DNA of 48,840 bases from a bacterium (GTDB taxonomy: Bacteria > Zhuqueibacterota > Zhuqueibacteria > Oceanimicrobiales > Oceanimicrobiaceae): contig JBHIAW010000002.1 in the NCBI GenBank assembly GCA_046758765.1, positions 1-48,840 of the forward strand, given 5' to 3'. The first letter of the stretch is position 1. Every line of letters starts with the position of its first letter. The notes beneath the pieces are model-generated. The model saw only the letters and a list, made by a program, of their open reading frames with translations. It did no database searches and was not told the DNA's origin. Below are positions 20,962-42,119 of this stretch, in pieces. A program made the translations under genes and the position numbers.

Positions 20962-20979
20962 GCAAAATCTCCGACTCTA

Positions 20980-21969: not shown

Positions 21970-21997
21970 TATTATTTCGACTAAGTATTCTGATTAA

Positions 21998-22048
21998 TAA
22001 AAAAAGCTCTTGTCCGCGTGGCTATATTTGACCACCGAATCAAGAGCT
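21998..22048 (-). terminator. rho-independent terminator downstream of the LysM gene
   Basis: Stem AGCTCTTG (22005-12) / CAAGAGCT (22041-48), with an inner GTGG/CCAC pairing. On the minus strand it is followed by a T7 run (plus-strand A-run 21998-22004). Confidence 0.6.
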
Positions 22049-22155
22049 AAATTTTGACAAAAACTAAAACAACCGTGATCAACAATTCTTAATTGCTTAC
22101 ACAAGAGCAATAATTATTGGATTATTGCCTAAGTAAATTTGTTATGCTCAACGAA

Positions 22156-22995
22156 TTACCTAGGAATAACCAATACCGTATAAGGATAAATTAGACTAGG
22201 GTCATCACCTACGGTGTCTTTATTGGCATCATATATTGCTCGCCACTTAGTAGGATCACCAAGTACATCCATGCTGCCAGCAATTTTGGCCAGATTATCA
22301 CCCTTTCCTACCAGATATTCATCGGGTCCAACTTCCCGCTGAATCTTAAAAATCTGATCGGGATAAATCAAATCAGGATCTTTTATTTGGTCCCGATTAT
22401 ATGAATAAATCCGGACCCACATAAAGGGATCGCCGTAAATATCAGGCTTTTTGGAAATTCTCCAGAGATAGTCACCCCGAATGACCGTGTATTCATCGTA
22501 GATAGCTTTAGGCATCTTTGACCTAAGCTGAGCAATCTTACCTTCGAGGCTGGCGATTTTATCTCGCATTTCTGTTAAGACAGCATTCTTATCCTTCTTA
22601 AGCTCTTGCAGCTTTTCTTCATTAGCATCAATTTCCTTCCGTCTCTTAAACAAATCTTCAGGGGATAAAGCTCCCAAGGCGTTTAGTTCAGTTTCCATAT
22701 CACTGAGTTTTTGACGGAAAGCATTGACTTCTTCTTCAGTGGTACCGATAACTTGGTAGATTTCTGCCCACACATCTTTAATTTGAGCATTTACATCAGC
22801 AATTTGGGACTGAAGCGATTCAATCTCGGCATCTAACTTGGCAATTTCGTCCTTCGCTGCTCTCTCCCGATTTGCCCACTCTTCCACCTGAGCGTTGTAC
22901 TCTTTCATGGTCATTTCTTGTGCAAAACTAACATTATTCAATATCAGTACAACGAGTATTGAGAAGGCAAAGAGAGTTTTACTCACAGCTTTCAT
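22156..22995 (-). CDS. secreted coiled-coil protein with two C-terminal LysM domains
   Basis: Signal peptide MKAVSKTLFAFSILVVLILNNVSFA|QE and about 140 aa of coiled coil. Two LysM-like units are present (YTVIRGDYLWRISKK...IYPDQIFKI; YLVGKGDNLAKIAG...IYPYTVLVIP). SD is AGGAGG. Confidence 0.8.
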   Translation of the reverse strand: MKAVSKTLFAFSILVVLILNNVSFAQEMTMKEYNAQVEEWANRERAAKDEIAKLDAEIESLQSQIADVNAQIKDVWAEIYQVIGTTEEEVNAFRQKLSDMETELNALGALSPEDLFKRRKEIDANEEKLQELKKDKNAVLTEMRDKIASLEGKIAQLRSKMPKAIYDEYTVIRGDYLWRISKKPDIYGDPFMWVRIYSYNRDQIKDPDLIYPDQIFKIQREVGPDEYLVGKGDNLAKIAGSMDVLGDPTKWRAIYDANKDTVGDDPSLIYPYTVLVIPR

Positions 22996-23036
22996 GTTAG
23001 CCCTCCTTTTTTCGAAAGTATAAATAAAATCTTTAA

Positions 23037-23303
23037 TTACTGACCAACTCGCGTCTTGACTTCTTCGAGTTCTGCTTTGGTGTCTTGCAGCTCTTGTTTT
23101 GTGCGATTTAGTTCACTCTCAACTCGACTCTTCTCCCTTCTTCTCTCCTCTAAAGTATTTTCTGCCGCAAGTGCAGCATTTTTCTGTTCTTCTAATGCTT
23201 GTAGTTGCTCAGCGTTGGGATGTTTGGTACAGCCAACAAAGGAGAATGAGGAAAGAACAAACAACATCATCACAAACAAAATAATAAACTTTACTGTTTT
23301 CAT
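23037..23303 (-). CDS. small coiled-coil lipoprotein (Lpp-like)
   Basis: MKTVKFIILFVMMLFVLSSFSFVGC carries a lipobox, followed by a ~60-aa heptad-rich helix. ATG 23303 is preferred to GTG 23315, which abuts the SD AGGAGG. Confidence 0.7.
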   Translation of the reverse strand: MKTVKFIILFVMMLFVLSSFSFVGCTKHPNAEQLQALEEQKNAALAAENTLEERRREKSRVESELNRTKQELQDTKAELEEVKTRVGQ

Positions 23304-23382
23304 CTGGCAATTCACCTCCTTCCCTTAACTAAATTATTCTTGAAATTTTTTTCCATCATGTGGGGATTGATTAACAAAGTGA

Positions 23383-23411
23383 ATAATAACAAAAAAAATC
23401 CTAATTGTCAA
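23383..23411 (-). promoter_or_regulatory. candidate sigma70-type promoter TTGACA-17 nt-TATTAT
   Basis: On the minus strand: TTGACA (23411-23406), a 17-nt spacer, then TATTAT (23388-23383). It is about 80 nt upstream of ATG 23303. Confidence 0.5.
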
Positions 23412-23423
23412 GAAAAAAATGAT

Positions 23424-25196
23424 TTACACAGTTTTCAAACCTAATTCTTTAAGCTGTTCTTCTTTGACTTCAGAAGGCGCCCTGTCCATTAATGAAAGAG
23501 CACTATTGGTTTTAGGAAAGGCAATGACTTCTCGAATGGAGTTTTTGTTGGCTAACAGCATGACCAATCGGTCAAACCCAAATGCAATGCCGCCGTGCGG
23601 AGGTGCACCATACTCAAATGCATCCAAAAGAAATCCAAACTTATCTTTAGCCTCTGCTTCTGATATCTTAAGTAAATGGAATATTTTGTTTTGCAGGTCC
23701 CGATTATGAATTCGGACGCTTCCGCCTGCTATTTCATATCCGTTTAATATCAAATCATAAGCTTTGGCCCTGACCTTGTCAGCGTTCTTATCTAATAGCT
23801 GCAAGTCTTCATCCAATGGCGCGGTAAAAGGATGATGTCGCGCCACAAATCGGTCTTCTTCAGGGTCCAATTCTAATAATGGAAAATGCACGATCCACAC
23901 ATGCTTAAATTCTTTTTGCGGGATTAAACTTTCTTCTTCTGCCAATCTTTTTCTCAAAAAACCCAACAATGAAAGAGCCTTATATTTTTCATCTGCTATT
24001 AACAGTAGCAAATCCCCACTTTTGGCATTAAAAGAGAGGTTTATCTTGTGAATGGCATCTTCTGTAAAAAATTTGACTAATGGGGAATCCCATCCATTCT
24101 CCGATACTCTAATGGCAATCAATCCTTTAGCACCTTCTTGCATCAAAGTCTTTGTCAATTCATCCATCCGTTTCCGCGAGAAACTTGCTCCGTTCTTCAT
24201 GACTATTCCACAAACGATACCTTCAGCTTTGAGGCTTTCAGTGAACACTTTAAAATTGCACTTCTTAACTAGGTTGCTAATCTCTACAATTTCCATTCCA
24301 AAACGAATATCAGGTTTATCTGTACCATAGGTTGCAATGGCTTCTTCATAGGTAAACCGAGGAAAGGGAGTTTCAATTTCTATGTCTAAAATCTTCTTAA
24401 AAACTTCGACCATGAGTCCTTCAACCGTTTCCAGAACATCGCTCTCCTCAACAAATGACATTTCAACATCTATTTGAGTGAATTCCGGCTGTCGGTCTGC
24501 GCGAAGGTCTTCATCTCTAAAGCAACGAACAATCTGAAAATATCGATCTATACCCGCAATCATAAGAATTTGCTTATAGGTTTGAGGGCTCTGCGGCAAA
24601 GCATAGAATTTCCCTTTATGAATTCTGCTCGGCACTAAATAATCTCTGGCACCTTCGGGAGTACTGCGCATCAAAAAGGGAGTTTCGATTTCTAAGAAAC
24701 CATGACGATCAAAATATGACCTGACTGCCTGGTAAGTTTTGTGTCTGATAATCAAACCCCGCTGCATCTCTTTATTTCTGAGATCAATGTAGCGGTATTT
24801 CAGACGCAATTCCTCAGAGATGTCTACATTTTCATCAACACCAAATGGGGGAGTTTTAGCTCTATTTAGTATCTTAAGCTTCTGAGCTATCACCTCGATG
24901 ACCCCTGTGCTTAAATTAGGATTAACCATACCTTCGGGTCTTTTCTGCACTAGGCCTTTTATGGCAATTACAAACTCCCCTCGAAGCTCCTTAGCACGTT
25001 GGTAGGAATGTTTCGAAGCTTGAGGATCAAAAACGACCTGAGTGATGCCATAGCGGTCTCTCAAATCGATAAATATTACCCCTCCAAGGTCTCGTCTCCG
25101 ATGCACCCATCCCATTAAGATTACATCATGGCCACTGTTTTCTATCCCCAGCTCACCACAGGTATGGGTTCTTTTCCACCCTTCCAATTTGTCCAA
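23424..25196 (-). CDS. aspS: aspartate--tRNA ligase (bacterial type)
   Basis: RTHTCGEL at the N-terminus, class II motifs FRDEDLRADRQPEFTQID and GGIAFGFDRLVMLL, and the bacterial insertion domain. TTG start preceded by AAGGAGGG. Confidence 0.95.
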   Translation of the reverse strand: MDKLEGWKRTHTCGELGIENSGHDVILMGWVHRRRDLGGVIFIDLRDRYGITQVVFDPQASKHSYQRAKELRGEFVIAIKGLVQKRPEGMVNPNLSTGVIEVIAQKLKILNRAKTPPFGVDENVDISEELRLKYRYIDLRNKEMQRGLIIRHKTYQAVRSYFDRHGFLEIETPFLMRSTPEGARDYLVPSRIHKGKFYALPQSPQTYKQILMIAGIDRYFQIVRCFRDEDLRADRQPEFTQIDVEMSFVEESDVLETVEGLMVEVFKKILDIEIETPFPRFTYEEAIATYGTDKPDIRFGMEIVEISNLVKKCNFKVFTESLKAEGIVCGIVMKNGASFSRKRMDELTKTLMQEGAKGLIAIRVSENGWDSPLVKFFTEDAIHKINLSFNAKSGDLLLLIADEKYKALSLLGFLRKRLAEEESLIPQKEFKHVWIVHFPLLELDPEEDRFVARHHPFTAPLDEDLQLLDKNADKVRAKAYDLILNGYEIAGGSVRIHNRDLQNKIFHLLKISEAEAKDKFGFLLDAFEYGAPPHGGIAFGFDRLVMLLANKNSIREVIAFPKTNSALSLMDRAPSEVKEEQLKELGLKTV

Positions 25197-25243
25197 TTTT
25201 TTTCCCTCCTTGACAACGTCAATTCATTGTTAATCTAAGATAT

Positions 25244-25278
25244 AAAAAAACCGCCATAAGTTCAATGACATCTGGCGG
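25244..25278 (-). terminator. rho-independent terminator of the exbBD/TonB-like operon
   Basis: Stem CCGCCA (25251-56) / TGGCGG (25273-78). On the minus strand it is followed by a T7 run (plus-strand A-run 25244-25250). Confidence 0.6.
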
Positions 25279-25355
25279 CTTTTGTTTCACTAGTAGAACG
25301 ATTCCTAATCATCATAGCAATGAACATGAAAGTGTTCTTGTGTTTCTGTGTTCAA

Positions 25356-25489: not shown

Positions 25490-26650
25490 TTAGTAACCAA
25501 AAGCAAATACTTGACGTATCGTGGTGTCGCCATAAGATGGGTCAATGGAACCAAAGTCATTCCAGCGCCGAATTCTATTCATAACGCATCGTTCTACTTT
25601 GCGACTGCTTATCGTTGAAGAAACAATGGTCAGTTTTTTCACCGCACCTTGAGGGGTGATAGTAAAACGAACAACCAGTTTGCCCTTCAAATTTGGATTC
25701 CGTTTAAGGGCTCTTTCGTAACAATATTGAATTGCGTTCTTATGCTTTAACACAACTGCCTGAATATCATCTTGGTTCCTTCCTAAAATACCTTTTTCGC
25801 CATTCCCTTCGATAAGAGGTGAGTCACTCACTACAACCAATTCGCCCGATCTTTCAAAAGACCTAGACTTGGTAGTTCCTAAGCCAGAAACCAATTGATC
25901 TATGCCTCCCCCTTCTTGAGCACGTTCGCCCTTTACGCCATCGCCGCCATCTCCAGAACCTCCTTTACTCCTACTCGGCATACCGCCTGTCTTAATTCCT
26001 GACAAATTTGATAGGGCTTTATCCAGGTCTTGTTCACTATTTCCCGATCTAAATAGGATGTCTTCTACTTCCTCTCCGCTTGCCACACTACTGGTACTTG
26101 TCAGTAAAGCGAGAATACCTTTAGAACCAATTGCGGCTGCAATCTCTTTTTGTGATCTACCTGTACCCTTGCCACCGGCTCTCCCTCGTCGAGCCGATCT
26201 GAGTTGCGATCTTTTAGTTGTTTTTGTAGCTTTACCTTTTGGTGCAGCCCCTTCAGCTAACTCTGTTTCTGAACTCTTTTCCTTATCGGCCTCTTCCGCC
26301 TCCTCAACAGGTCTTTCCTTAGAAAAATCAAATTTAGTGAAAAGCGCTTCTTTTGGAGCTTCACGTTCCACTAACATTTTTGCTAAACGTTGTTGAATTT
26401 TAGCTAACTTACTAATTCTGCTTTCCATCGAAGGCGGATTCAGCAAAAAATAAGATACCAACATTATGTGCGCTAAGATCGAAGCAATTAAAAAAGTTAT
26501 GAAGCGTTGATCAATACGATCTGAGAATGATTTACGGAATTCCCTTGGGAATTCTATTATTTTAGGCTCGAAAAAATCACTCTCCGATGTGTCATAATCA
26601 TCAAGCTCATAATCGTTGACGGAACGTGGATTCTTCTCTGCATCATTCAT
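25490..26650 (-). CDS. TonB-like energy transducer with AgmX/PglI-type C-terminal domain
   Basis: An N-terminal cytoplasmic segment plus one TM (FITFLIASILAHIMLVSYFLL), a long low-complexity E/K/G/S linker, and a C-terminal domain NAIQYCYERALKRNPNLKGKLVVRFTITPQGAV...VERCVMNRIRRW.F typical of the AgmX/PglI C-terminal family. Confidence 0.7.
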   Translation of the reverse strand: MNDAEKNPRSVNDYELDDYDTSESDFFEPKIIEFPREFRKSFSDRIDQRFITFLIASILAHIMLVSYFLLNPPSMESRISKLAKIQQRLAKMLVEREAPKEALFTKFDFSKERPVEEAEEADKEKSSETELAEGAAPKGKATKTTKRSQLRSARRGRAGGKGTGRSQKEIAAAIGSKGILALLTSTSSVASGEEVEDILFRSGNSEQDLDKALSNLSGIKTGGMPSRSKGGSGDGGDGVKGERAQEGGGIDQLVSGLGTTKSRSFERSGELVVVSDSPLIEGNGEKGILGRNQDDIQAVVLKHKNAIQYCYERALKRNPNLKGKLVVRFTITPQGAVKKLTIVSSTISSRKVERCVMNRIRRWNDFGSIDPSYGDTTIRQVFAFGY

Positions 26651-26727
26651 TTTTTCACCCTTAGCTTCCTTTGTGTGCAGGTTCTAATGAACAGATTATT
26701 AATAGTTCATAGGTATAAAATTAAACC

Positions 26728-27222
26728 CTATTCTCCTTTTCTATATACGAGAAGTCGCATGTTTGGGTACTCCGAAGCACCACAGGTCGCCATCACTTTT
26801 ACCAAGTCCCTATATTTTATACCCCTGTCCGCCTGAATGGTCACTTTACCAGAAAAAGGAATACCAAACTGTTCTTCCATGTTTTTCGCTTCAATAGCAT
26901 GGAATAATAATTCATTCTTAAGTGGCCTGATAATGTATCCTCTTTGTTTTTGCACACTTTTCAAATCAATGACGGGTTTGTCGTTGACCATAACAACTTC
27001 CTTAGAAACAATTAAATCCAAAGCTGTCTCGGCCGAAGTTTGTATGGTGGATTTGGGAAGAGTCAAATATTCAGATGGTTGAATCAATTGACCCTCTGTA
27101 GCATAGGTTTTCAGTAAAAACACCAAAATAATGGTAAACATATCCATCATGGAAGTAAGGTTTAAACGTCCACCGCCGGGATTGGTATCGTGCTTTTTTA
27201 TTCGAGATGGTATGAAGGCCAT
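26728..27222 (-). CDS. exbD: ExbD/TolR-family biopolymer transport protein (second copy)
   Basis: LNLTSMMDMFTIILVFLL (TM with the conserved Asp) and a periplasmic domain. ATG 27222 (GGAG 6 nt upstream) is preferred to TTG 27234. Confidence 0.85.
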   Translation of the reverse strand: MAFIPSRIKKHDTNPGGGRLNLTSMMDMFTIILVFLLKTYATEGQLIQPSEYLTLPKSTIQTSAETALDLIVSKEVVMVNDKPVIDLKSVQKQRGYIIRPLKNELLFHAIEAKNMEEQFGIPFSGKVTIQADRGIKYRDLVKVMATCGASEYPNMRLLVYRKGE

Positions 27223-27282
27223 AGGGATCTCCAATAACTACATTGAGATAAATAAGATACGAATTTTCATCTAATTTATGCT

Positions 27283-27813
27283 TTAAAGGACTGATGCACT
27301 AAAAGAAACTTTTGGGAACAAACTTATATGCCTACCATCTATTGATATTGAACGAGAAGCATCCATCGTACTGACTATATCCTGGTATTCTATCTGTGGC
27401 TCAGCCTGGATCACAATGGAATCAACATCCCTAAAACGACCGACAGCTTTTTGCTTAATTTCATAGAGTCTTTGAGAAAGTAGAGCATAATCGTATTCGC
27501 CATTAACTTTCGAAATAGAAGGCCCCTGCTCGGTTTTCATGATACCTGCCGCACTTGACAAAAAGAATCCTTTATCGGTAATCGTAACTGCCAAATCTAA
27601 TTTTAACTCAGTTTCTTTTGGCATGTCTGTTTTTACTGTCTTAGCCCCGGCCGCAGGGGGTAAATTTAATTCTATGACGCTGATTTTGATATACTGTGCC
27701 GATGAAAGTAATAGTGGTATGATCACCACCATAAGATTCATAACAGGCGTCAGATTAGGCTGCAAATTTTCTATTTTAACTCGTGATCTGCGGAAAGACG
27801 GTCTGTAGGCCAT
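27283..27813 (-). CDS. exbD: ExbD/TolR-family biopolymer transport protein (first copy)
   Basis: PNLTPVMNLMVVIIPLLL forms the TM, followed by a periplasmic ExbD-like domain. It starts 3 nt after the exbB stop. Confidence 0.8.
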   Translation of the reverse strand: MAYRPSFRRSRVKIENLQPNLTPVMNLMVVIIPLLLSSAQYIKISVIELNLPPAAGAKTVKTDMPKETELKLDLAVTITDKGFFLSSAAGIMKTEQGPSISKVNGEYDYALLSQRLYEIKQKAVGRFRDVDSIVIQAEPQIEYQDIVSTMDASRSISIDGRHISLFPKVSFSASVL

Positions 27814-27816
27814 GAT

Positions 27817-28467
27817 CTATTGATTCCCAGTTATAAGGTTAATCAATTTGACTGTATGTTCGTCGATTTCATCGATAATTTGAATGGTTTTATTGTGTAA
27901 GAATGTATAAATCAAAATCGCTGGTACAGCAATCGCCAGTCCCAACAGAGTAGTATTCATGGCGGTAGATATACCTGCTGCCAAAAAGGCTGACTTTTGT
28001 GCCGCGTCATAGCCAGCTTCAGAAACCGCACTAAATGCTAATATGAGTCCGTAGATCGTTCCCATGAGACCTATCAATGTGGATATATTACCTATCATAG
28101 CTAAGAATCCCGTTCTTTCTTGAAGCTTGGGAATGACTTCGAGAGTACCCTCATCCACAGAATTTTGAATAGAGCGAAAATCAACGGCCTCACTATCTGC
28201 AACCCTACGGAGTCCAGCACTTACGACGCGCGCTAATGCTTTGTCTTTGGCTGCCTCGCAAAGGTCTAAGGCTTTCTGATATTCTCCGGCCTTAACCAAT
28301 TTACGGATTTCCGCCATAAATTTGTTGGAATTGATATTTGACTTCACCCAAATGTAGTAGCTTCTCTCCACTGCAATGGCTACCATAAAGGCCGCCGTTA
28401 CCAATAGAGCCCACATGAATAACCATCCTGATGCTCCGGGACGGAAATGTTCAATTAAGTCACCCAT
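27817..28467 (-). CDS. exbB: MotA/TolQ/ExbB proton-channel protein
   Basis: Three TMs, with GFLAMIGNISTLIGLMGTIYGLILAF and TAMNTTLLGLAIAVPAILIYTF. SD is GGAGG. Confidence 0.9.
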   Translation of the reverse strand: MGDLIEHFRPGASGWLFMWALLVTAAFMVAIAVERSYYIWVKSNINSNKFMAEIRKLVKAGEYQKALDLCEAAKDKALARVVSAGLRRVADSEAVDFRSIQNSVDEGTLEVIPKLQERTGFLAMIGNISTLIGLMGTIYGLILAFSAVSEAGYDAAQKSAFLAAGISTAMNTTLLGLAIAVPAILIYTFLHNKTIQIIDEIDEHTVKLINLITGNQ

Positions 28468-28523
28468 GTCACATGTCCTCCATAATTAAAAGTGTGTCCT
28501 AAGATGTACCATTAATTATAAAT

Positions 28524-28883
28524 CTAATTCTTGTCTTTCGCAAGAACTTTTTTTATGATTTCGATTTTTTTCAAATTCTCAAGCTCGCTTTCTAAAAGCC
28601 ACAGCTTTTCTGGGCCTGAGTTGAGCTCATGTTCAAATGACCTGTCAATAAAGTCCATTTCTTCAAATACTGCATCTTCACGAGTTGGCAAAATGGCGAC
28701 GTTCGGCTTTTCAATTACTGCCTCAATAAAAATCTCTTCTAAGACTATTTCTTCGATTTTACCTACTTGTGTTGTATCGGACCTGACAGAGGTAGTATCC
28801 TTTTGAGCAAAAGCACATTCAATTATAATTAAATTTGCTATGGCTAGGAATAAAACTAAGTTATATCTACTTATTCTAGACAT
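28524..28883 (-). CDS. small signal-anchored or secreted protein of unknown function
   Basis: MSRISRYNLVLFLAIANLIIIECAFA|QK followed by an acidic body. ATG 28883 (GAGG upstream, no overlap) is preferred to ATG 28904. Confidence 0.5.
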   Translation of the reverse strand: MSRISRYNLVLFLAIANLIIIECAFAQKDTTSVRSDTTQVGKIEEIVLEEIFIEAVIEKPNVAILPTREDAVFEEMDFIDRSFEHELNSGPEKLWLLESELENLKKIEIIKKVLAKDKN

Positions 28884-28893
28884 TGACACCTCA

Positions 28894-31800
28894 TTATTTC
28901 TCATCTATCTTTGATTCTTCTTCAATATTGTGATCAAGGTCTTCCTCTAATGGTTCTTCAATATTAGACCAATCCGGTAAATTCTTGACTTCCAACACCG
29001 CCTCCAAGCTCCCAATCAGATCATTTGAATCTTGGACTTCTAATGATAAAACATTTTTCCCGCTTTGTAAAAACTTAGACAGATCATGAATACGAGTTGA
29101 TGGTTCTTGTGAAGAATCGTAATCATATACTGCAACAAATTGACCATTTAAGAATAGATTATATGAGCCATCCAAATTCAACTGGATTAATCCTGAAACA
29201 GGGAGTCCAGTAATTTCAAATGCCTTTCTAATATAAACCTTATTTTGACCTTCTGGAAACTGGGTTAAGTTAGCGGACGACAGGGTATCTTCTGAAGGCG
29301 CTGCTATATCAAATTTTGTAGAATCTGTGCCCGGAAAGCTTCTTTGATCCATTTGTATCCATATCTTTTTTGATGTGCTTTCAGCAAATTTAGTACTGGG
29401 ACCTATTTCTTTGGCAGGAGTCCATAGAGAGTCATTAAAATCAACTTCGTTCCAGCCAGAATAAAAATCGGCAGAAACTAACCAAGTAGAATTCGATGGA
29501 ATTAGCTTGGTTTCACTTGCCATTCCCAACATTTCGCCATATTCTTCAGGGTTGGACTGGACCAGGGCCAATTTAACTTTCTGACTCCAGGGATTTTCTA
29601 TAGCCAGCTCCTCGTAGGTCTCGTATCCGAACATAAGAATCTTTTGGACCGCATCGCGTAAGGAAAAATGGTTTTCCTCAAATGTAAATAACGCATCCTC
29701 ATAGTCAATGCGCTCAGTTTGTTTGAAGAGATTTTCATAATATCGACGTTTGGCATCTGCTTGTATAGAAAAAGAATCGGCTAAAGCTGCATACTCATAA
29801 ATTGACCTCATTAGATTCTCTTCGGCAGCGGCAATTTCATCGGATTGAATGTTCAACGAGCGGGCATTTTCAATACTTTGCTTATACCCTTTAGCACTCG
29901 CCAACATATAGTTACTACTGATCTCAATAAAATTAGACATTTGATCAGCTAATTCAAAGGCACTTTCGTCGCCGCTTTCAATCAAGTTCTCATAAGGTCC
30001 AACTATTTCACTGTAACCTGTTAACGCCTCAATTCCAAGATTTTTGTATTCGTTAGGAACCATATTACTCATGGTTACGATTTTGTTTTTGGATAATTCT
30101 ATCCACTGATTGTCAAGATTTAGTTCGGCTCCTTCATTAATATTTCGAGTATGCGCAGCAATAATCTCTTTTAAAGTTGGGTCCACAGCCTTTACCAAAA
30201 GCTGATATCGATACACTATTTCTTCCAATTTCTTCATCCCTGGCGGGGATGGAGCATTTAAGAATTGCTCTACCGATTCAAAATTGATTTCAGCTATGTG
30301 GTATAATGTTTCAGAAATCTTGCTCTGACATTTATTAATCCATTTTTCGGCAGCTATCAGTGTGGTATCTAATGGGACCAATTTACCTGATGTGGCGGCT
30401 ACTGTATCGGGTGTGATGGATTGGCTATATGCTTCTGCAAATCGCGATAGTACCTTGACTCCATTTTTGTAGGCCTCAACTGCCCTCTCGTAAAGTTCTG
30501 CGGCTGTATTGTTTATTTCCTTTTGGGCAACAATTCTTCGATTCTCATCCATCGCTGGAATATCCTGAAGAGCCCATGTTTGAGCAAAATCTTCGTAAAC
30601 CCTGCCGATTTTATAAGTAGCTTCATAAAGTCGAACCGTTCCATAACCTGCTAATTTTGTATAACTGTCAACTAAGTCTAAGAGAAGCTGTTTCTTCTTA
30701 ACTTTGTTTTCTGACATTACTGCTGGAGGCAGCTTAAATTCAATATTCTTGTACTCATTGTATTTGGACTCTGTTAACTCATATAAGGCTTCGGCTGCAA
30801 AAAAATCATTAGAATCTATACCGCGGTCCTTAAATTCGTTGTTTTTACGGACAGCCTTTTCAAATTCCTCTTTAGCTTCATTAATAAGATTATTCTCTTT
30901 CAAGTATTTTCCACGATGATAAAAGGCCTCAACTACTCGAGGCGAATCAGGAAATTTTTCTGCAAACGCTGCGTAGATGTTGTTTGCGCTCCCTAAATCG
31001 CCCAATTTTAAATAGTAATTTGCATTATTAAATAACAGCTCATCAGCATCTTCTGCGTTGGGGAATCTCTCAACAAATTTTGTGTTTACTTTGATGGCCC
31101 GCATCCATTCCTCAGCTTGAACAAATGAGACACTCGCGTTATATAACGCAACTTGAGCCATTTCTTCGTCTGGTTGTAGCTGGGCCAGTTTTTCATAAAC
31201 TAAGGCGGCATTATGAAAATCACTTAATTCCCTGTAGTCAAATGCCAAATTGTTCAGAGCATTCAAGGAGTGCTCAGATTTGGGATACTCGCTGAGCAAT
31301 TGGCTGTAACTATCTACTGCTCGTCTATATTCTTTCGCTTGTTCATATTCCAGAGCTGAATTGTACAAAGCCAAATCTGCGAATTCAACGTTGGGGGCCT
31401 GCGCAACCATCCTGCGATATTCTTGAGCTGCACGCAGATGTTCCAAAGAATCTGCGTATGTTTTGGCTTGTAAGAATATCGATTCGGCTAATCGTCGATT
31501 GGCTTTCGCTGCATATTCTGGGCTCATATCTCTCAGTCTTCTGGCTACTAACTCAGCGCTTTCATAGTCAGACTTGCCGAAATAGCTCTCCATAATAATG
31601 TATCGAGCATGGTCTATTTCGGGGCTTCCAGGAAAGTGCTTGACCAAGGTCCTAAAATACTTAAGTGCTTCCTTGAATTGGTGGTGCTCATAATATAAGG
31701 CCCCTGCTTTTGCGAGAATTTTGGCCGTCTCAGGCTCGTGTGGAAAAAGCTTGACATAATTGTCCAAAGCAAAAACCAGTCTCTTTTGATCCTCTGTAAG

Positions 31801-33444
31801 TGCATCTCTTTGAAGATGTAATCTTTGCCGAAGACTATCTCTGGAACTCAATCCTTCCCGAATCTCGCCGATAGTCAGGGGTAAGACTGTTCTTGGAGAT
31901 GAGAGACTGTCTGTTCTCAATACATCATCAGCAATAGCAATTGCGTTCTCGGCTGCTTGTTTCTGAAATCTAGTGTTCCAATATAAGTTGCTAATCTTAA
32001 TGTACTCATCGAATGCTTGATCGTGCAATGCAAGTTTGGCATCCAACGTTAATGCCATATTCCAATGAATCAAAGCGGCGTTACTGTTTTCAGAGAAGGT
32101 GGACAAATAGTCACGACTATCATTTACTGCCTGAAAGTAGAGGTTTTGGTCGTCGGTTTCTTTAGCTCTTCTTAGTAACAATTGGATGTTATCTCGCATC
32201 GCTCTTTCAGCTAAATCGAGTGCCTCTTTTCTCGCCTCTGGCTCCTCAACGTTTTCCCACCAATCCGTACCTGGTCGATAAGTACGAAATAATTCAGATC
32301 GCCGCACGTAACTCATACGTTCATCGTTCATTTTTCTGTATGCTTCGGCCATCTTTGCTTGGATTTCTGGAGCCTTAGGTGAATTCGGGTACATTGTTAA
32401 GGTGAGTTGATAGGCATTTATCGCCTGATCATATTCTTCTTTGACCTCCAGGTAAACATCACCGATCTTGCGAAGCACATCGAACCCATATTCTCTTCCA
32501 CCAAGCTCTCTAAAATATTCAGCCGCCTTCTCAGGACCTCCATAATCCAAGAAACTAATCCCGATATACTCAATTGCTTCATCCCGAACAGCCGGAAAGT
32601 GATACTGATACTCAGGATCAATCTCTTTAGCGTGTTCAATGTCGTCAGCTAACATGGTAAAATAAGAGATAGCCGATGGATAATCGTTCAATTTGTAGTA
32701 TGCCCATCCCAGACGATATAACGCCGCATCATAAATTGAACTTTCTTTGTAGTTTAATACTTGTTGATATAGGCCAATAGCTTTGTCAATGTCATTGACC
32801 GGGGGATTGAAATAATGTTCAGCCATCCGCATCAGGGCATCTGGAACGTACCGGCTCTCAGGAAATTCTTCAATCAGTTTTTGAAAAGCTTCGAAAGCTT
32901 GCTCTCGTTGGCCTAAATCTTCAAGCAAAAATCCTTTGTTATAGAGCGCATCGTCAAGCAAATTACTTTCAGGGAATTCATCAATAATTCTCTGGTACAA
33001 TCTCAGAGGTTCACCATAATCCTTATGAGGCTCCTCAGGCAATTGCTCAATTTCTCCCTTGTCATAAAGAGCTAATAATCGGTGATATTCGTCGTTGGTA
33101 ACTTCATAATCCAGTATCGCCTGTTCATAATACAATTCTGCCAAACGAACGATTAGTCTGTCTAATATTCGACTATTTGGATGGTCTTCAATGAAGGCTT
33201 CCGTATCCCTAATACCTTTGGCTCGCAGCTCGTCTTTTTCTATCAACAATCTTTCAGTCTCATTTTTGTAATACTCTTGCAGTTCCAACAAATCATCTAT
33301 CGAATAAGTCTGAAGGAGGGAATCCGTTGATAAAGCTGTATCTTTGTTTCCGGCGAGGCCGTTGGTTAGGGCTGGATTCTGGCTATAAGACCATGTCGAG
33401 CTCAAAATAATGGCTATGAATGTAATGACAAATTTCACTTTCAT
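28894..33444 (-). CDS. giant secreted TPR-repeat protein (1516 aa) with C-terminal beta-rich (jelly-roll-like) domain
   Basis: Signal peptide MKVKFVITFIAIILSSTWSYS|QN. There are dozens of TPR-like units (DALYNKGFLLEDLGQREQAFEAFQKLIEEFP...). The last ~220 aa are non-helical (WLVSADFYSGWNEVDFNDSLWTPA...YIRKAFEI...LNLDGSYNLFLNGQFV...VLSLEVQD). Confidence 0.8.
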   Translation of the reverse strand: MKVKFVITFIAIILSSTWSYSQNPALTNGLAGNKDTALSTDSLLQTYSIDDLLELQEYYKNETERLLIEKDELRAKGIRDTEAFIEDHPNSRILDRLIVRLAELYYEQAILDYEVTNDEYHRLLALYDKGEIEQLPEEPHKDYGEPLRLYQRIIDEFPESNLLDDALYNKGFLLEDLGQREQAFEAFQKLIEEFPESRYVPDALMRMAEHYFNPPVNDIDKAIGLYQQVLNYKESSIYDAALYRLGWAYYKLNDYPSAISYFTMLADDIEHAKEIDPEYQYHFPAVRDEAIEYIGISFLDYGGPEKAAEYFRELGGREYGFDVLRKIGDVYLEVKEEYDQAINAYQLTLTMYPNSPKAPEIQAKMAEAYRKMNDERMSYVRRSELFRTYRPGTDWWENVEEPEARKEALDLAERAMRDNIQLLLRRAKETDDQNLYFQAVNDSRDYLSTFSENSNAALIHWNMALTLDAKLALHDQAFDEYIKISNLYWNTRFQKQAAENAIAIADDVLRTDSLSSPRTVLPLTIGEIREGLSSRDSLRQRLHLQRDALTEDQKRLVFALDNYVKLFPHEPETAKILAKAGALYYEHHQFKEALKYFRTLVKHFPGSPEIDHARYIIMESYFGKSDYESAELVARRLRDMSPEYAAKANRRLAESIFLQAKTYADSLEHLRAAQEYRRMVAQAPNVEFADLALYNSALEYEQAKEYRRAVDSYSQLLSEYPKSEHSLNALNNLAFDYRELSDFHNAALVYEKLAQLQPDEEMAQVALYNASVSFVQAEEWMRAIKVNTKFVERFPNAEDADELLFNNANYYLKLGDLGSANNIYAAFAEKFPDSPRVVEAFYHRGKYLKENNLINEAKEEFEKAVRKNNEFKDRGIDSNDFFAAEALYELTESKYNEYKNIEFKLPPAVMSENKVKKKQLLLDLVDSYTKLAGYGTVRLYEATYKIGRVYEDFAQTWALQDIPAMDENRRIVAQKEINNTAAELYERAVEAYKNGVKVLSRFAEAYSQSITPDTVAATSGKLVPLDTTLIAAEKWINKCQSKISETLYHIAEINFESVEQFLNAPSPPGMKKLEEIVYRYQLLVKAVDPTLKEIIAAHTRNINEGAELNLDNQWIELSKNKIVTMSNMVPNEYKNLGIEALTGYSEIVGPYENLIESGDESAFELADQMSNFIEISSNYMLASAKGYKQSIENARSLNIQSDEIAAAEENLMRSIYEYAALADSFSIQADAKRRYYENLFKQTERIDYEDALFTFEENHFSLRDAVQKILMFGYETYEELAIENPWSQKVKLALVQSNPEEYGEMLGMASETKLIPSNSTWLVSADFYSGWNEVDFNDSLWTPAKEIGPSTKFAESTSKKIWIQMDQRSFPGTDSTKFDIAAPSEDTLSSANLTQFPEGQNKVYIRKAFEITGLPVSGLIQLNLDGSYNLFLNGQFVAVYDYDSSQEPSTRIHDLSKFLQSGKNVLSLEVQDSNDLIGSLEAVLEVKNLPDWSNIEEPLEEDLDHNIEEESKIDEK

Positions 33445-33500
33445 TTTTCCAATTTAGGGGTGAACGTCCTGTCCTTTGCTAAAATTAATTTGTCAGACTT

Positions 33501-36404
33501 TTATTTTGGGGGCGAGATAGGAGTTTGGGTTTTCTCAACTTCTCGCTCCTTGGTGTCAAAGTACGACTCTTTGAAATAATCTTCCTTTTGCTTTTTCTCT
33601 GTTTGAATTTGTTCTTTTGTCACTTCTTCTTCTATACGCTTAATTTTCTCATCAAACCCTGCGATTCTTTGCTCTAACGATTTTCTGCGTTCTTCTAATA
33701 TCTGATTAATCGAATTAATATTGTCTGAGATGTCAGAAATTCTTGCCTCTTTTTCCTTAATGCTCTGAAAGGTAATGTCATTCATTCCGAAACCAGAGAA
33801 ATCGGCCCAGGTATCGAAGTTGGTGTCTAATTCCTGAACTTGGTGCTCAGCCAGCCAAACACGAAGTTGACTAGATCGATTCATAAGATTCCTTAACTCA
33901 TTTTCCAAAATTTCCAAGTCCAGTTTGGCATCTAAATCATACGTATAAGCTACACTTGTAGCCTGTAATCGTCTTAGATTTCTTAGATTCTCTTGAATTC
34001 TTTGACGTTCGTTATCCATTTGTTGAACTAAGTTACTTAACACAGCCCTTTGGTATTTTACCGACCCTTCCTTAGTTGCGAGTGGATATTCTAATAAATA
34101 ATTTACATTATACATAGAACTGTCCGCTTGATAAACATTTAGTACCTTCATTAACCTCTCGCGTTGTTGATGGGCAGCAGTTACAATACTTTTTTCTCCT
34201 TTTTCATTTGCCTGAATGATAATCTCGTCTAAATAATCAATTTGCTGTAAAATAGTGTTACGTTCATCTTCAAATTTTTCTAAAACCAAATTTCCTTTAA
34301 TTCCACGATGTCGAAATTCTGCAAGCATTTGCTGTAGGTGAGCTCGAATTTGAGAAGTAATCTTATAAAGGTTATCGTCACGTCGCTCTAGAATCTCTTC
34401 TTCTATTTGGTCTAGCTCAGCAAGTTGATCTAAGATCAATTTTCTCTCGTCATTGTAAAAATCAGACAATTCCAAAACTCTTCGAGCATTAGCGACGTAT
34501 CTTAAATCTCGGAGCGCAGAATCTGGTTGCTTTAAAAGCTTCTTACAATGGGCCGACAAAACTAAGGCTTCGTAGGTATAATTTGAGGCCAAATAATCTT
34601 GAAACAAATGATTCACATTTTCAATAGTTTGGGCATAGTTACCTTGTTTAAAATTAGCCCAAGCTGCGCCTAAGAGACTCTTATCATAGTCACTGAATCC
34701 TGGTGAAACGCTATTAAAATACTCAAGAGCTTTTTCATAATCACCAAGTTCATAGTGAATGTAGCCCAGTTTCAAACGAGAGTTGTTTCGAATAAAGGTC
34801 GTTTGAGTCTCTGTCCATGGATAATTTTCACGATTTGCCAATTCCTTAAATATCTCAATTGCATCGTCATAATTATGTTGATTTGCAGAAACGATGCCCA
34901 ACAGGTAACGTGCCATCAAATAGTATTTCGAATCCTTTGCCACATTTGATAGCGCTTCTTTAGCCTCACTGAATCTTGAATCTTTGAAATAGGCATAACC
35001 AGCCATATAATTACACTTGTTGTAACAACTTTTTTTCACCCTTGCAGCCTGGGATTTAAGGATTTCAAAATATTTATAAAAATCTGTCTTATTGCCTAAT
35101 TTGTCATTGATCACCATCAGCCGAAATAAACTGTCTTCAAAATATGGTGAATCAGGATACTCGGCTACAATCACTTCATAATCCTTTGTTGCATCATCGA
35201 ACAACTGACGAGCGTATAAGCACTCTCCGCGAAAGAAAATCACGGATTCAAGACCTTTGAAAAAGTTACCATAATCTTTCAAAATTAGATTAAATTGAAG
35301 TTCGGCTAGCGGGTAATCACCCTCAACATAATTCAAAAACGCATCATTCAAATCCCTTTCAAGCATTCTTGACCTTTCTGCTAAAGAAGCATTAGCGAGA
35401 AGGCTTTCTTTCATTATTTCATGCTGAGTATATCGAACATCATAATTAGCGATTTGCTTTGCTTTCCATTCTCCAAAAATCTCGGATACCTTTGGACCCT
35501 CCACTATCAGATTAGAGTCATATCCTAACAAACTTAGAAACCGATTGTCGATTTTTTTCAAAATGGACCTTCTATAGTCTTCCAGTTCAATACTGACATC
35601 AGTGTCCTGATTAATAGCCTTTAATTCCAATTTTTCTATTTCATTTAATATTTGGGTAATCAATTTTGCTTCAATTATGTATTGGTCTGCAAGGGCATCG
35701 GGAAAAGCGGCTTTTGAGTCGCCCAAAAGATTACTGATCGAGTCTTTTTGAGATTCAATTAGTTGCTGCATTTGACCACTTGCTCGCGCTTTGACTTTCC
35801 GTCTAAATTTATCCAAATGACTATAAAACGATAATACAGAATCTACTTCACTGGAATAGTCTTGAACCATTTCAGATATACGCTTTTGCGTATGAAGGCC
35901 CTCTGCGTAAAGTTCTCGATTTTCCAGCAGCCCGACTACTTTTTCCCGCAACGCAGCAATTTTTTCCCAAGACCTGAAATCTCTATTCTGATCCACTACC
36001 CGCTCTAATTGGTTGATTTCCTCTATTATTTTTAGAAGTTTATTTAGCTCTTGGGAGTATTCTGCGATTAATCTATCCGACTCACCAAATATCTCGGCAT
36101 AACCAATTTCATCTTTCAGAATAGCCCTTTTCCCTCGCACTCTTATTTCTTCAGTAATATTTTGAATCATTTGCAAAAGCAGTTTCTCCTTCACAGCCAT
36201 ATCTGAAAAAAACTGCTTGCTTTTCTGATTGAGATAAAATTGAAGTTTGTCCTCAAAGCTTACTTCAATCTGGCTTTCAAAATCATCTGTTTCTTGAGAA
36301 TAAAGATAAGGGTTATTCTGAATGTGGAAAATTAACAGTAAAAAAGATGGAATGAGGAATAACTTTAAATAATGATATTTTGTCTTTCGTAGCTGCCTTG
36401 CCAT
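33501..36404 (-). CDS. 967-aa membrane-anchored coiled-coil / TPR protein
   Basis: N-terminal TM (YHYLKLFLIPSFLLLIFHI), about 330 aa of coiled coil, central TPR-like units (e.g. YLLGIVSANQHNYDDAIEIFKELA) and a C-terminal coiled coil. Confidence 0.75.
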   Translation of the reverse strand: MARQLRKTKYHYLKLFLIPSFLLLIFHIQNNPYLYSQETDDFESQIEVSFEDKLQFYLNQKSKQFFSDMAVKEKLLLQMIQNITEEIRVRGKRAILKDEIGYAEIFGESDRLIAEYSQELNKLLKIIEEINQLERVVDQNRDFRSWEKIAALREKVVGLLENRELYAEGLHTQKRISEMVQDYSSEVDSVLSFYSHLDKFRRKVKARASGQMQQLIESQKDSISNLLGDSKAAFPDALADQYIIEAKLITQILNEIEKLELKAINQDTDVSIELEDYRRSILKKIDNRFLSLLGYDSNLIVEGPKVSEIFGEWKAKQIANYDVRYTQHEIMKESLLANASLAERSRMLERDLNDAFLNYVEGDYPLAELQFNLILKDYGNFFKGLESVIFFRGECLYARQLFDDATKDYEVIVAEYPDSPYFEDSLFRLMVINDKLGNKTDFYKYFEILKSQAARVKKSCYNKCNYMAGYAYFKDSRFSEAKEALSNVAKDSKYYLMARYLLGIVSANQHNYDDAIEIFKELANRENYPWTETQTTFIRNNSRLKLGYIHYELGDYEKALEYFNSVSPGFSDYDKSLLGAAWANFKQGNYAQTIENVNHLFQDYLASNYTYEALVLSAHCKKLLKQPDSALRDLRYVANARRVLELSDFYNDERKLILDQLAELDQIEEEILERRDDNLYKITSQIRAHLQQMLAEFRHRGIKGNLVLEKFEDERNTILQQIDYLDEIIIQANEKGEKSIVTAAHQQRERLMKVLNVYQADSSMYNVNYLLEYPLATKEGSVKYQRAVLSNLVQQMDNERQRIQENLRNLRRLQATSVAYTYDLDAKLDLEILENELRNLMNRSSQLRVWLAEHQVQELDTNFDTWADFSGFGMNDITFQSIKEKEARISDISDNINSINQILEERRKSLEQRIAGFDEKIKRIEEEVTKEQIQTEKKQKEDYFKESYFDTKEREVEKTQTPISPPK

Positions 36405-36603: not shown

Positions 36604-37029
36604 TTAAGTTTTTGAAGCTACGCGAATCCTGTTAATGGCCCTCACTAATGCAACCCTGGCGCGCGCAACATCCCATGTTTTACTGCCTTCGTTAATTCTT
36701 TTGATGGCCCTGTCCTTGGCATCTTGGGCACGTTTGAGGTCAATAGCAGCCGTAGATTCCGCAGTTTCAGCCAGAACAGACATACTGTGGGGAAGTACTT
36801 CTACAAAACCACCGCTTGTAGCAAAAAACAAAGTTTCGTCATCAATCTGTACTTTTATTTCACCTATTTTTAGAGCGGCCAACAATGGGGTGTGCCCAGG
36901 AAGCACGCCAAAGTATCCATTTAAACCTGGAACACGAACCGCGGTGACATCACCTGAGTAGACTTTTTGGACAGGAGTAAGTATCTCAAATTTTATTTTT
37001 TGACGTAACATATTGGTATATGAATTCAT
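36604..37029 (-). CDS. atpC: F1 ATP synthase epsilon subunit
   Basis: FEILTPVQKVYSGDVTAVRVPGLNGYFGVLPGHTPLL forms the beta-sandwich, followed by a helical hairpin. It sits after atpD. Confidence 0.9.
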   Translation of the reverse strand: MNSYTNMLRQKIKFEILTPVQKVYSGDVTAVRVPGLNGYFGVLPGHTPLLAALKIGEIKVQIDDETLFFATSGGFVEVLPHSMSVLAETAESTAAIDLKRAQDAKDRAIKRINEGSKTWDVARARVALVRAINRIRVASKT

Positions 37030-37040
37030 GTTACTTCGTG

Positions 37041-38444
<1,404 letters not shown>

Positions 38445-38508
38445 CTAATCCCTTTGTTATCAAATTGATTGATTAATAGATTCACTTTACCTTAGAACAA
38501 TTTTCAAA

Positions 38509-39375
38509 TTAAGCTCGAAGTGCTTCCGCACCCCCAACAATTTCTGAAATTTCCTTTGTAATCGTAGATTGTCGAACTTTATTATAATACAGTGTTAAAT
38601 CGTATATCATCTCTTGGGCGTTATCGGTAGCTGCATCCATGGCAACCATTCTGGCGCCCTGTTCAGCAGCATAGGATTCTAACAAAATGCGCCACATCTG
38701 AATATTCAAATTTTTTGGACATACTTCATCTAATATTTTTCCAGCAGACGGTTCATGAAGGTAGTCAACCGGCTGGTATTTATCAAATTCTGGCAATTGA
38801 GGCTCGATTGGTAACAATTGCTCAACTATGACCCTTTGCACGGCGGCAGATTTGAATTCGTTATAGACCACAAAAACCCTATCCAATTCCTTGGATTGAT
38901 ATAAATTCTGAATCAAGCTCGAGATGTTGACCGCATGCTTGAATTCAAGTTGATCGAAGAGATTTATGTATCTTTCAATCAATTCAAATCCACGACGCGA
39001 GAAATGCTCAAAGCCTTTTCTTCCAACGGTCACTAAGGTCGTTTTTTCCAAAGAGTTGTGAGCATCAATTTCGGCTTTAGCCATACGAATGATGTTGGCG
39101 TTAAAACTGCCGCAAAGTCCTCGGTCAGCCGTTACTACCACATAACAAATACGGTTTGGCTCTCGCACTGCCAAGAGCGGGTGCAAGCTTCTGTTTTCTT
39201 TAGCCGCAACATGAGATAATAGCTGTCCCAAACGGTAGGCATAGGGTCTGGCACTAATAAGCCTTGCCTGAGCCTTCCGCAACTTAGCAGCCGCCACCAT
39301 TTTCATGGCCTTGGTAATTTGCTGCGTACTGCGAACGCTGCTGATGCGTCTTCTTATGTCACGAAGCGTAGCCAA
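38509..39375 (-). CDS. atpG: F1 ATP synthase gamma subunit
   Basis: MATLRDIRRRISSVRSTQQITKAMKMVAAAKLRKAQ and the C-terminal ITKEISEIVGGAEAL. The TTG start directly follows the atpA TAA. Confidence 0.95.
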   Translation of the reverse strand: MATLRDIRRRISSVRSTQQITKAMKMVAAAKLRKAQARLISARPYAYRLGQLLSHVAAKENRSLHPLLAVREPNRICYVVVTADRGLCGSFNANIIRMAKAEIDAHNSLEKTTLVTVGRKGFEHFSRRGFELIERYINLFDQLEFKHAVNISSLIQNLYQSKELDRVFVVYNEFKSAAVQRVIVEQLLPIEPQLPEFDKYQPVDYLHEPSAGKILDEVCPKNLNIQMWRILLESYAAEQGARMVAMDAATDNAQEMIYDLTLYYNKVRQSTITKEISEIVGGAEALRA

Positions 39376-40911
<1,536 letters not shown>

Positions 40912-41050
40912 TTAACAATTGTAAATAATACTGATAAACTGTACATTGGCATCTCACAAAAATACGACTGTTCCGCAATGAAACATCCTTTTACCGTATA
41001 GGCTTCAAATTTAGACCCCTTTTCAGGCAGAAATAAGGTAATTGCAAATG

Positions 41051-42099: not shown

Positions 42100-42119
42100 A
42101 TTCTATTAACCTATTTAAT

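Follow-up and report, generated by a model that had tools for sequence, protein, structure and literature searches.

A seven-gene ExbB-ExbD block with giant TPR proteins in a Zhuqueibacterota genome as a likely orthologue of the Agl-Glt core complex

What is the task of an ExbB-ExbD-ExbD-TonB-like gene set that is found directly behind two giant tetratricopeptide repeat (TPR) proteins? This question is posed by seven genes on a 48,840-nucleotide stretch of contig JBHIAW010000002.1, assigned to the Zhuqueibacterota and originating from a hydrothermal-vent metagenome bin; the whole 48.8-kb stretch is called the window below. In order of transcription, the block encodes two large proteins of 967 and 1516 residues, a small secreted protein, an ExbB, two ExbDs (ExbD1 and ExbD2) and a 386-residue TonB-like transducer. 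A first-pass annotation, made from the letters alone, had proposed that these genes have the same parts list as the Agl/Glt core and may form an envelope machine rather than a nutrient-uptake TonB system. Both proposals are supported: a GltD homologue, a GltG-type transducer, an ExbB, two ExbDs and, probably, a GltC-like protein could be paired with core-complex components, and the AgmX-type tail of the transducer, the Glt-type scaffolds and the lack of a TonB-dependent transporter (TBDT) in the window speak for an envelope machine. We consider it likely, from sequence comparison, that the block is the orthologue, in the lineage of candidate division KSB1 and the Calditrichota, of the Agl-Glt core complex (Group B gltC, gltD, gltG and aglR/Q/S plus a small extra gene).

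Both the gliding and the spore-coat machine of Myxococcus are built around this conserved core, whose role in non-gliders has been open since 2011; in the literature, we found nothing relevant on newer work on its function outside myxobacteria. As defined by Luciano et al. 2011, it consists of gltC, gltD, gltE, gltG, aglR/Q/S and one extra gene, and these genes are clustered in beta- and gammaproteobacteria, Geobacter and Fibrobacter. GltF was placed in Group A in the same study. The present block has, in a single locus, one TolQ/ExbB-like and two distinct TolR/ExbD-like genes, a GltG-type transducer, a GltD homologue and a small gene between the TPR and the motor genes, all as in the core complex.

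The GltD-like scaffold and the GltG-like transducer

The 1516-residue protein starts with a signal peptide and an N-terminal helical region, followed by TPR repeats (residues ~140-860), in which Pfam and NCBIfam recognize many TPR_6/YbgF-type units, a non-TPR helical bundle (~860-1305), a beta-sandwich (~1310-1490) and an acidic tail. Since no Cys follows the signal peptide, it is not a lipoprotein. As a test of homology, a profile of the non-TPR, C-terminal 657 residues was searched against 1.8 billion representatives, yielding 3245 clusters at E<=1e-3. One of the matches, the Fibrobacterota protein P0238, bridges the KSB1 family (E ~1e-117 to 1e-91) and GltD-family proteins of the Myxococcota when it is itself used as the query, and its matches include a Myxococcota protein named 'gliding motility protein U' (AgmU, which is GltD). 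Indeed, BLASTP aligned the 1516-residue protein collinearly with a Hyalangium GltD-family protein (28% identity over 978 residues, E 1e-83), with a Myxococcales AgmU (24% over 979 residues, E 2e-52) and with P0238 (26% over 1018 residues, E 1e-107), and the proteobacterial core GltD was matched with an E value of 2e-26. The Hyalangium gene belongs to a locus with the order MglB-like, MglA-like, GltC-like (802 aa), GltD-like (1168 aa), GltE-like (475 aa), GltF-like (79 aa) and GltG-like (447 aa), and the Myxococcales AgmU gene sits in a locus of the type GltC-D-E-F-G-H, in which GltG carries forkhead-associated (FHA) domains.

When the non-TPR segments of both large proteins were scanned with NCBIfam, only a weak rhamnosidase match and no Glt match resulted. 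This collection apparently has no GltD model, as a myxobacterial GltD paralogue likewise receives no GltD match, and the missing Glt match is therefore uninformative. The similarity of the TPR proteins to Glt components, on which the first-pass reading depended, is borne out by the alignments with GltD; for the 967-residue protein it is likely, with GltCs as the best partners.

The repeats of the two large proteins also bring up a different explanation, namely a Tol-Pal-like housekeeping role in which motor and transducer would use CpoB-like TPR proteins to pull on the outer membrane or peptidoglycan, and so keep the outer membrane stable and constriction coordinated during division. YbgF/CpoB-type TPR units occur in both proteins (TIGR02795, 130 bits in 6 stretches and 60 bits), and the combination of coiled coil and TPR is the architecture of CpoB. 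However, the myxobacterial GltD paralogue shows the same YbgF/BamD/CpoB pattern (TIGR02795, 145 bits), so that these matches reflect the type of repeat and not a Tol function.

The C-terminal third of the GltD-like scaffold was predicted by AlphaFold2 (AF2) with a predicted local distance difference test score (pLDDT) of 85, as a long helical bundle followed by the beta-sandwich. Foldseek matched the latter, a galactose-binding-like domain, with a probability of 1.00, to the sugar-binding N-terminal domains of glycoside hydrolase family 2 (GH2) beta-galactosidases, beta-glucuronidases and beta-mannosidases and of alpha-L-rhamnosidase. The weak NCBIfam rhamnosidase match agrees with this. This domain is present in the homologues from KSB1, Fibrobacterota and Cloacimonadota and absent from myxobacterial and proteobacterial GltD. 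The modelled fold suggests that the target handled or anchored by the scaffold is a glycan, such as peptidoglycan, lipopolysaccharide or a surface polysaccharide. Unrelated large proteins from other phyla also carry this type of beta-sandwich, repeated three to four times in tandem (P0233 from Kiritimatiellales, 1329 aa, and P0194, 2391 aa).

The transducer consists of a short cytoplasmic N-terminus (~50 residues before the helix), a membrane helix, a linker of ~220 residues that is rich in Gly, Ser and Lys, and a C-terminal domain (residues 292-386); it has no FHA domain. The first-pass assignment of this C-terminal domain to the AgmX/PglI type was confirmed by the corresponding profile, NF033768, which scored 95.2 bits at a cut-off of 40. 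A GltG model covering 650 positions reached 97 bits over positions 324-627, with an equivalog cut-off of 650. BLASTP aligned the transducer with a Hyalangium GltG paralogue from the membrane helix through the C-terminus (26% identity over 339 residues, E 3e-20), and three GltGs encoded in Glt or core loci received 126, 101 and 64 bits from a hidden Markov model (HMM) of the KSB1 transducers. The membrane helix contains the motif Ser57-x3-His61, with Ser in 38 and Thr in 8 of 46 sequences and His in 38 of 46; SxxxH is the motif by which TonB and TolA bind their motors (PMC12204202). In the C-terminal domain, which has a conserved Cys pair, single-sequence AF2 predicted an alpha-beta-beta-alpha-beta fold (pLDDT 70-82 in the fold), for which the top Foldseek matches were TonB C-terminal domains, FusB and TolA. 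Systems whose transducer ends in a von Willebrand A domain, described in 2025 (PMC12204202), were considered and rejected; the domain found here is AgmX-type and TonB-like.

The TonB-like fold of the C-terminal domain and the SxxxH helix would also be expected if the block were an ordinary TonB-ExbB-ExbD energiser for TBDTs encoded elsewhere, for example for oligosaccharide uptake, with the TPR genes as unrelated neighbours. Operons of the type exbB-exbD-exbD-tonB are common in the Fibrobacteres-Chlorobi-Bacteroidetes (FCB) group. Yet the tail scores below both TonB thresholds (Pfam TonB_C, 22.4 bits at a cut-off of 24.6; TIGR01352, 23.3 at 27.1), while exceeding that for the AgmX type by far; the linker is not Pro-rich; no TBDT is encoded within the 48.8 kb; and the TPR genes are GltD and GltC homologues that are linked to the motor genes in nearly all loci (see below) and across phyla. 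For the homologous Fibrobacter genes FSU_2400-2403, which are ~1.2- to 1.7-fold up on cellulose, Raut et al. 2019 proposed a role in cellodextrin uptake; that proposal rests only on this induction and names no receptor. We consider an uptake system improbable. The reservation in the first-pass annotation that such gene sets are widespread in Bacteroidota-type genomes does not apply here, given the AgmX-type tail and ExbDs that correspond one-to-one to core-complex ExbDs, as described in the following.

The motor, the GltC-like protein and the small protein

For comparison of the motor proteins we used a core locus of the proteobacterial type from a metagenome (L083), encoding proteins of 638, 936, 233 and 194 aa, ExbB (217 aa), two ExbDs (166 and 174 aa) and a protein of 308 aa; the affinity of the block to a clade was judged by pairwise and HMM preferences. 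The ExbB from the window is 36% identical to the L083 ExbB over its full length (E 3e-34), and solved TolQ and ExbB structures were matched over only ~80 residues (E 1e-8). An HMM of ExbD1 scored 55.7 bits on the first L083 ExbD and 12.2 on the second; conversely, that of ExbD2 scored 82.6 on the second and 22.0 on the first. Each HMM thus prefers its positional counterpart, from which it follows that the two plug proteins are ancient paralogues with orthologues of their own, as expected for AglQ and AglS. A search of PDB sequences with ExbD2 returned no match. As to the Tol-Pal-like alternative, TolQ models give this ExbB a slightly higher score than ExbB models do (64 versus 53 bits), but the equivalog scores remain far under their cut-offs (TolQ, 64 versus 221; TolR, 23 versus 127).

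The two ExbDs differ at the position of the proton-binding residue. An Asp in this position of the membrane helix is essential for proton binding in ExbD, TolR and MotB. ExbD1 has Asn26 instead, and among 59 orthologues, 54 have Asn and 5 have Asp; Asn is also found in the Cloacimonadota protein (L073 15330-15875). In ExbD2, Asp31 is invariant (59/59). Both ExbDs of the proteobacterial core locus carry the Asp. The combination of Asn in ExbD1 and Asp in ExbD2 would result in a stator with a single protonatable site. A cluster from a metagenome-assembled genome (MAG) of the Chlorobiales (L071) was rejected as an orthologue: although it encodes a tail of the AgmX type, the two ExbDs are near-identical, both with Asp, and its genes are arranged in a different order.

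The 967-residue protein comprises a signal peptide or anchor, a coiled coil (residues ~60-340), a TPR region (~350-620) matched by Pfam TPR_16, TPR_6 and YfiO, and a C-terminal coiled coil (~620-950). The first-pass annotation had given it a transmembrane segment; its N-terminus may be a cleaved signal peptide and not a membrane anchor. The NCBIfam GltC model scored 64 bits (E 1.2e-17) on residues 350-618; its equivalog cut-off is 450, and a genuine GltC paralogue from Hyalangium, which likewise has a coiled-coil tail, reaches 81 bits. Among cluster proteins, GltCs are the best partners (E 3e-18 and 2e-12), the former being a Myxococcales GltC of 508 aa (BLASTP, 26% identity over 278 residues). 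Both the position of the gene and the architecture of the protein, TPR plus coiled coil, agree with GltC, and the 967-residue protein is likely GltC-like.

The small protein is probably a relative of GltF, an assignment for which there is moderate evidence from profile comparisons. The first-pass annotation had listed it with 119 residues, which is the length from the second Met. Its conserved core reads E-I-x-L-x-E-I-x-I-E-A-V-I-E-K-P-N-V-x-I-x-P-K-R. When an HMM of 58 orthologues was run against 1737 open reading frames (ORFs), the top match was the gene in the GltF position of the Hyalangium locus (16.9 bits, E 3.5e-4), which matches the NCBIfam model for CglF (= GltF). With the same HMM, a Myxococcales GltF reached 23.0 bits, compared with 5.9 bits for the additional gene of the proteobacterial core, called gene X here, and all these targets, both GltFs as well as gene X, have a similar strand-like motif. 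With hhalign, the small protein matched the family of GltF paralogues with a probability of 96.5% (E 8e-10), or 81.8% (E 1e-5) without the signal peptides. If it is a GltF relative, GltF would have belonged to the core from its origin instead of having been added in myxobacteria.

With homologues of seven Agl/Glt components present, the block could be thought to be a gliding machine like that of Myxococcus. However, the GltA, GltB, GltH and GltK barrels, the CglB adhesin, GltI, GltJ and the FHA domains of GltG are absent from block and window, so that, of Group A, only the GltF-like protein is represented there. Moreover, the core genes are insufficient for motility and present in non-gliders (Luciano et al. 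2011). Gliding is, in our estimate, the least probable of the functions considered, and highly improbable.

Several points weigh against our reading of the block as a core-complex machine. The GltC-like and GltF-like proteins were recognized with modest scores, and the former aligns with GltC only within its TPR repeats. Apart from the two large proteins, the block encodes no TPR protein that could be GltE; the published Fibrobacter core is also without GltE, however, so that not all members of the family have this component. The block itself has no gene for an outer-membrane partner. Protein rather than sugar may be the ligand of the beta-sandwich, and subunit stoichiometry, protein contacts and output are drawn from analogy with related machines. 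Finally, the core complex was of unknown function in every organism (Luciano et al. 2011).

Conservation and genomic neighbourhood

We scanned one genome per species for full-length relatives of the 1516-residue protein and scored the gene content of each of the resulting 70 loci by tblastn of all seven proteins and their neighbours. Full-length homologues of ~1500-1590 residues are 43-73% identical, and where they are named, their sources are candidate division KSB1, Calditrichota or Zhuqueibacterota; over the 70 loci, the identities are 38-73%. Many carriers are labelled 'uncultured Cytophagia', 'Bacteroidetes', 'Deferribacteres' or 'Actinomycetota'; their proteins group with those from KSB1 and Calditrichota, and judging from this grouping such labels look loose or wrong. 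All seven genes are present in the same order and orientation in 52 of the 70 loci, and 16 more are consistent with this though cut by a contig end, which answers in the affirmative the question from the first-pass annotation whether the block is conserved as a unit. In the remaining two, no small gene could be detected. The TPR genes are linked to the motor genes in 68/70 loci, the 967-residue protein is kept in 67/70, and the small gene occupies the same slot in 58. Median identities across loci range from 36% for the 967-residue protein to 70% for ExbB. In 27 loci atpC precedes the block, and in 36 aspS follows it; overall, the genes appear to have been inherited vertically, as a unit with housekeeping genes for neighbours. 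When the transducer was searched against plasmids with tblastn, no match was found.

In the window, a complete F1Fo ATP-synthase operon lies immediately upstream of the block, with the end of atpC at 36604; downstream are aspS, a LysM coiled-coil protein, phoH, a 7TM-HD protein, ybeY and corC. A bactofilin, an M23 peptidase, parAB and LptD are encoded at a greater distance from the block. The order atp operon-cluster-aspS-LysM coiled-coil-phoH-7TM-HD-ybeY (18586-25196 and 36604-43365) is kept in many KSB1-type genomes. A role in the envelope or in division is possible for the LysM coiled-coil protein (22156-22995, minus strand, 279 aa), which has a weak TolA_bind_tri match and a conserved place two genes downstream of the cluster. 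Bactofilin and M23 peptidase (43992-45367, minus strand) form a cell-shape or division pair; their genes separate parAB from the ATP-synthase operon and belong to the same run of co-directional genes.

Such conservation throughout the phylum beside housekeeping genes, together with the envelope and division genes nearby (LysM coiled-coil protein, M23 peptidase, bactofilin, LptD), would suit the Tol-Pal-like role considered above. Within the 48.8-kb window, however, there is no gene for a TBDT, TolB or Pal, which confirms and extends the first-pass statement that no TonB-dependent receptor is adjacent, and Fibrobacter, which has the same cluster, possesses a separate peptidoglycan-associated lipoprotein (FSU_0604). 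Overall, we regard a Tol-Pal-like role as unlikely, though by a long way the best placed of the competing explanations; it is compatible with membership of the core complex.

The features of the block are listed in Table 1. The seven ORFs are present and co-directional as first described, with intergenic distances of -11 to 77 nt, and the true start of ExbD2 is likely Met5, at 27222. A clean terminator had been placed at 25244-25278; indeed, the hairpin at 25246-25283, to which a T-run adjoins, has a folding energy of -16.3 kcal/mol (z -3.5; 1 of 200 shuffles folds as well). A simple consensus terminator scan overlooked this hairpin because of its long loop.

Table 1. Features of the seven-gene block in the window
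Feature	Position	Strand	Remarks
GltC-like protein	33501..36404	-	967 aa
GltD/AgmU-like scaffold	28894..33444	-	1516 aa
Small secreted protein, probably GltF/CglF-like	28524..28904	-	126 aa from first ATG; 119 aa from second Met
ExbB/TolQ/AglR-like proton-channel subunit	27817..28467	-	216 aa; Pfam MotA_ExbB 85 bits
ExbD/TolR-like subunit 1 (ExbD1)	27283..27813	-	176 aa; Pfam ExbD 40 bits
ExbD/TolR-like subunit 2 (ExbD2)	26728..27234	-	168 aa; Pfam ExbD 50 bits
GltG-like force transducer	25490..26650	-	386 aa
Beta-sandwich domain of GltD-like protein, residues ~1310-1490	28975..29517	-	AF2 and Foldseek
Intrinsic-terminator-like hairpin and T-tract closing the block	25239..25283	-	upstream of aspS

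Related clusters were found in further phyla. The Cloacimonadota version encodes a 1965-residue giant, a small protein of 98 aa, ExbB, two ExbDs and a 511-residue protein with a weak AgmX tail. This GltG-like protein (L073 16390-17925) has a cytoplasmic N-terminal domain of ~170 residues that is absent from the KSB1 protein and may match the FHA domains of Myxococcus GltG. In a Fibrobacterota MAG (L082 16129-22662), aspS, a related coiled-coil protein, phoH and a 7TM-HD gene adjoin a GltD-like gene; the motor genes are not adjacent.

Elsewhere in the window, a region encoding an FG-GAP/ASPIC protein and a 538-residue TPR protein (779-4251, plus strand) has a G+C content of 47-52%, compared with 36-45% in the rest, and may be foreign DNA. 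A PIN-domain ORF lies beside a small unannotated ORF (10458-10850 and 11075-11485, plus strand), and the two may form a toxin-antitoxin pair. Two ORFs of ~400 aa (11635-12888, plus strand, and 15382-16563, minus strand) had no Pfam match at E<=1e-5, and an Rfam scan of the window matched no family.

Proposed mechanism and comparison with known systems

A mechanism can be proposed by analogy with the solved ExbBD and TolQR 5:2 motors and with an AlphaFold model of the Myxococcus machine, in which the GltG linker wraps GltD, the GltG C-terminal domain docks on GltD, a strand of GltF pairs with the GltG sheet and the GltF C-terminus binds GltC (PMC11761067). An ExbB pentamer would surround one ExbD1-ExbD2 heterodimer, and proton flow would be converted into movement. 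The helix of the GltG-like protein would ride on the edge of this motor, with the long, flexible linker and the C-terminal domain gripping the GltD-like pillar. The conserved beta-strand of the small protein could pair with the TonB-like domain in the fashion of a TonB box, and the small protein would connect to the GltC-like coiled-coil/TPR protein, placed closer to the outer membrane, while the sugar-binding-like domain of the pillar would contact an envelope glycan. The output would be mechanical work on an envelope component and not the opening of a TonB-dependent nutrient transporter. The presence of the block throughout the phylum, flanked by housekeeping genes, points to a constitutive envelope function rather than to motility.

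As the core has been described in an FCB-group bacterium, Fibrobacter, since 2011, our finding extends a known kind of system. What is new is its phylum-wide conservation among housekeeping genes, a scaffold that carries a beta-sandwich, the predicted heterodimeric plug with a single Asp, the one-to-one orthology of the ExbDs across phyla and the probable link to GltF. That the core is a stable operon among housekeeping genes across a group of FCB phyla argues for a basic envelope function.

More tentatively, the form found in KSB1, Calditrichota, Fibrobacterota and Cloacimonadota might be inherited vertically, serve a housekeeping role and be nearer to the ancestral state of Agl-Glt than the proteobacterial form, as a proton-driven, glycan-acting machine with a one-Asp stator that already included the ancestor of GltF; we consider this possible, but doubtful. 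If true, it would challenge the 2011 proposal of a transfer from Deltaproteobacteria into Fibrobacter, and GltF, so far seen as a myxobacterial and Bdellovibrio innovation, would already have been present in the ancestor. The partial recurrence of the FCB gene order in the Fibrobacterota MAG would sit uneasily with a recent transfer into Fibrobacter.

The sugar-binding-like domain of the scaffold, the one-Asp heterodimeric stator and the GltF-like strand as a possible 'TonB box' of the transducer lead to testable predictions, and a compact seven-gene operon of motor, transducer and scaffolds is well suited to co-folding and reconstitution. The carriers are uncultured, so that direct tests need Fibrobacter or a gammaproteobacterium. 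Labels such as TonB uptake system or 'TolA-binding protein' should be given to genes of this kind only with caution.

TonB-ExbB-ExbD and TolQRA-TolB-Pal share with the KSB1 block a channel of the MotA/ExbB/TolQ family, ExbD/TolR plugs, a single-pass SxxxH transducer and its TonB/TolA-like fold. In contrast to these systems, the plugs of the KSB1 block are two non-equivalent proteins, one of them without the Asp, rather than a homodimer; the tail is AgmX-type, without a Pro-rich or long helical linker; no TBDT, TolB or Pal partner is present in the window; and there is obligate linkage to GltD- and GltC-like scaffolds.

The Agl-Glt machine of M. xanthus, together with Nfs and other paralogues, has in common with the block GltD, GltG (from the helix to the C-terminus), probably GltC and GltF, and a TolQ-like with two TolR-like proteins, as well as the proposed logic of a motor acting through a TonB-like transducer on a TPR pillar (PMC11761067). 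The KSB1 block lacks GltA, B, H, K, I, J, CglB and GltE, its transducer is without the two cytoplasmic FHA domains of Myxococcus GltG, and its scaffold is not a lipoprotein and has the added beta-sandwich. Whereas the motor genes form part of the same operon in KSB1, they occupy a separate locus in M. xanthus.

Closer in organization is the proteobacterial core. In Methylibium (Mpe_A1224-1231; 634, 941, 243, [extra gene], 217, 170, 163 and 371 aa; Luciano 2011 Table S3) and in L083, the order is GltC, GltD, (GltE), gene X, ExbB, ExbD, ExbD and GltG-like, which is that of the window but for GltE, and the transducer (~310-370 aa) is likewise without FHA domains. The proteobacterial core differs in its GltE-like TPR gene (233-243 aa), in a shorter GltD (936-941 aa) without the beta-sandwich, and in that both ExbDs keep the Asp; the similarity of gene X to the KSB1 small protein is weak and consists of the shared short motif.

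The greatest resemblance in gene order and size is to Fibrobacter succinogenes S85 (Fisuc_1892-1897 / FSU_2397-2403), a comparison that rests on the published table and on other Fibrobacterota homologues. Luciano 2011 Table S3 lists a GltC-like protein of 746, a GltD-like protein of 1292, ExbB of 212, [ExbD], ExbD of 164 and a TonB-family protein of 308 aa. Like the KSB1 block, this core is without GltE and without FHA domains on the transducer, and the additional helical bundle and the beta-sandwich of the KSB1 scaffold are also present in GltD-like proteins of Fibrobacterota. The two large KSB1 proteins (967 and 1516 aa) exceed their Fibrobacter counterparts in size, and the KSB1 GltC-like protein has long coiled coils; directly upstream, Fibrobacter has the OmpA-family gene FSU_2396 in place of atpC. 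In Fibrobacter, the orthologous proteins are made and located in the envelope, and the TPR proteins are reported to form complexes in outer-membrane vesicles together with the OmpA protein encoded next to them (PMC4619616, PMC6851124).

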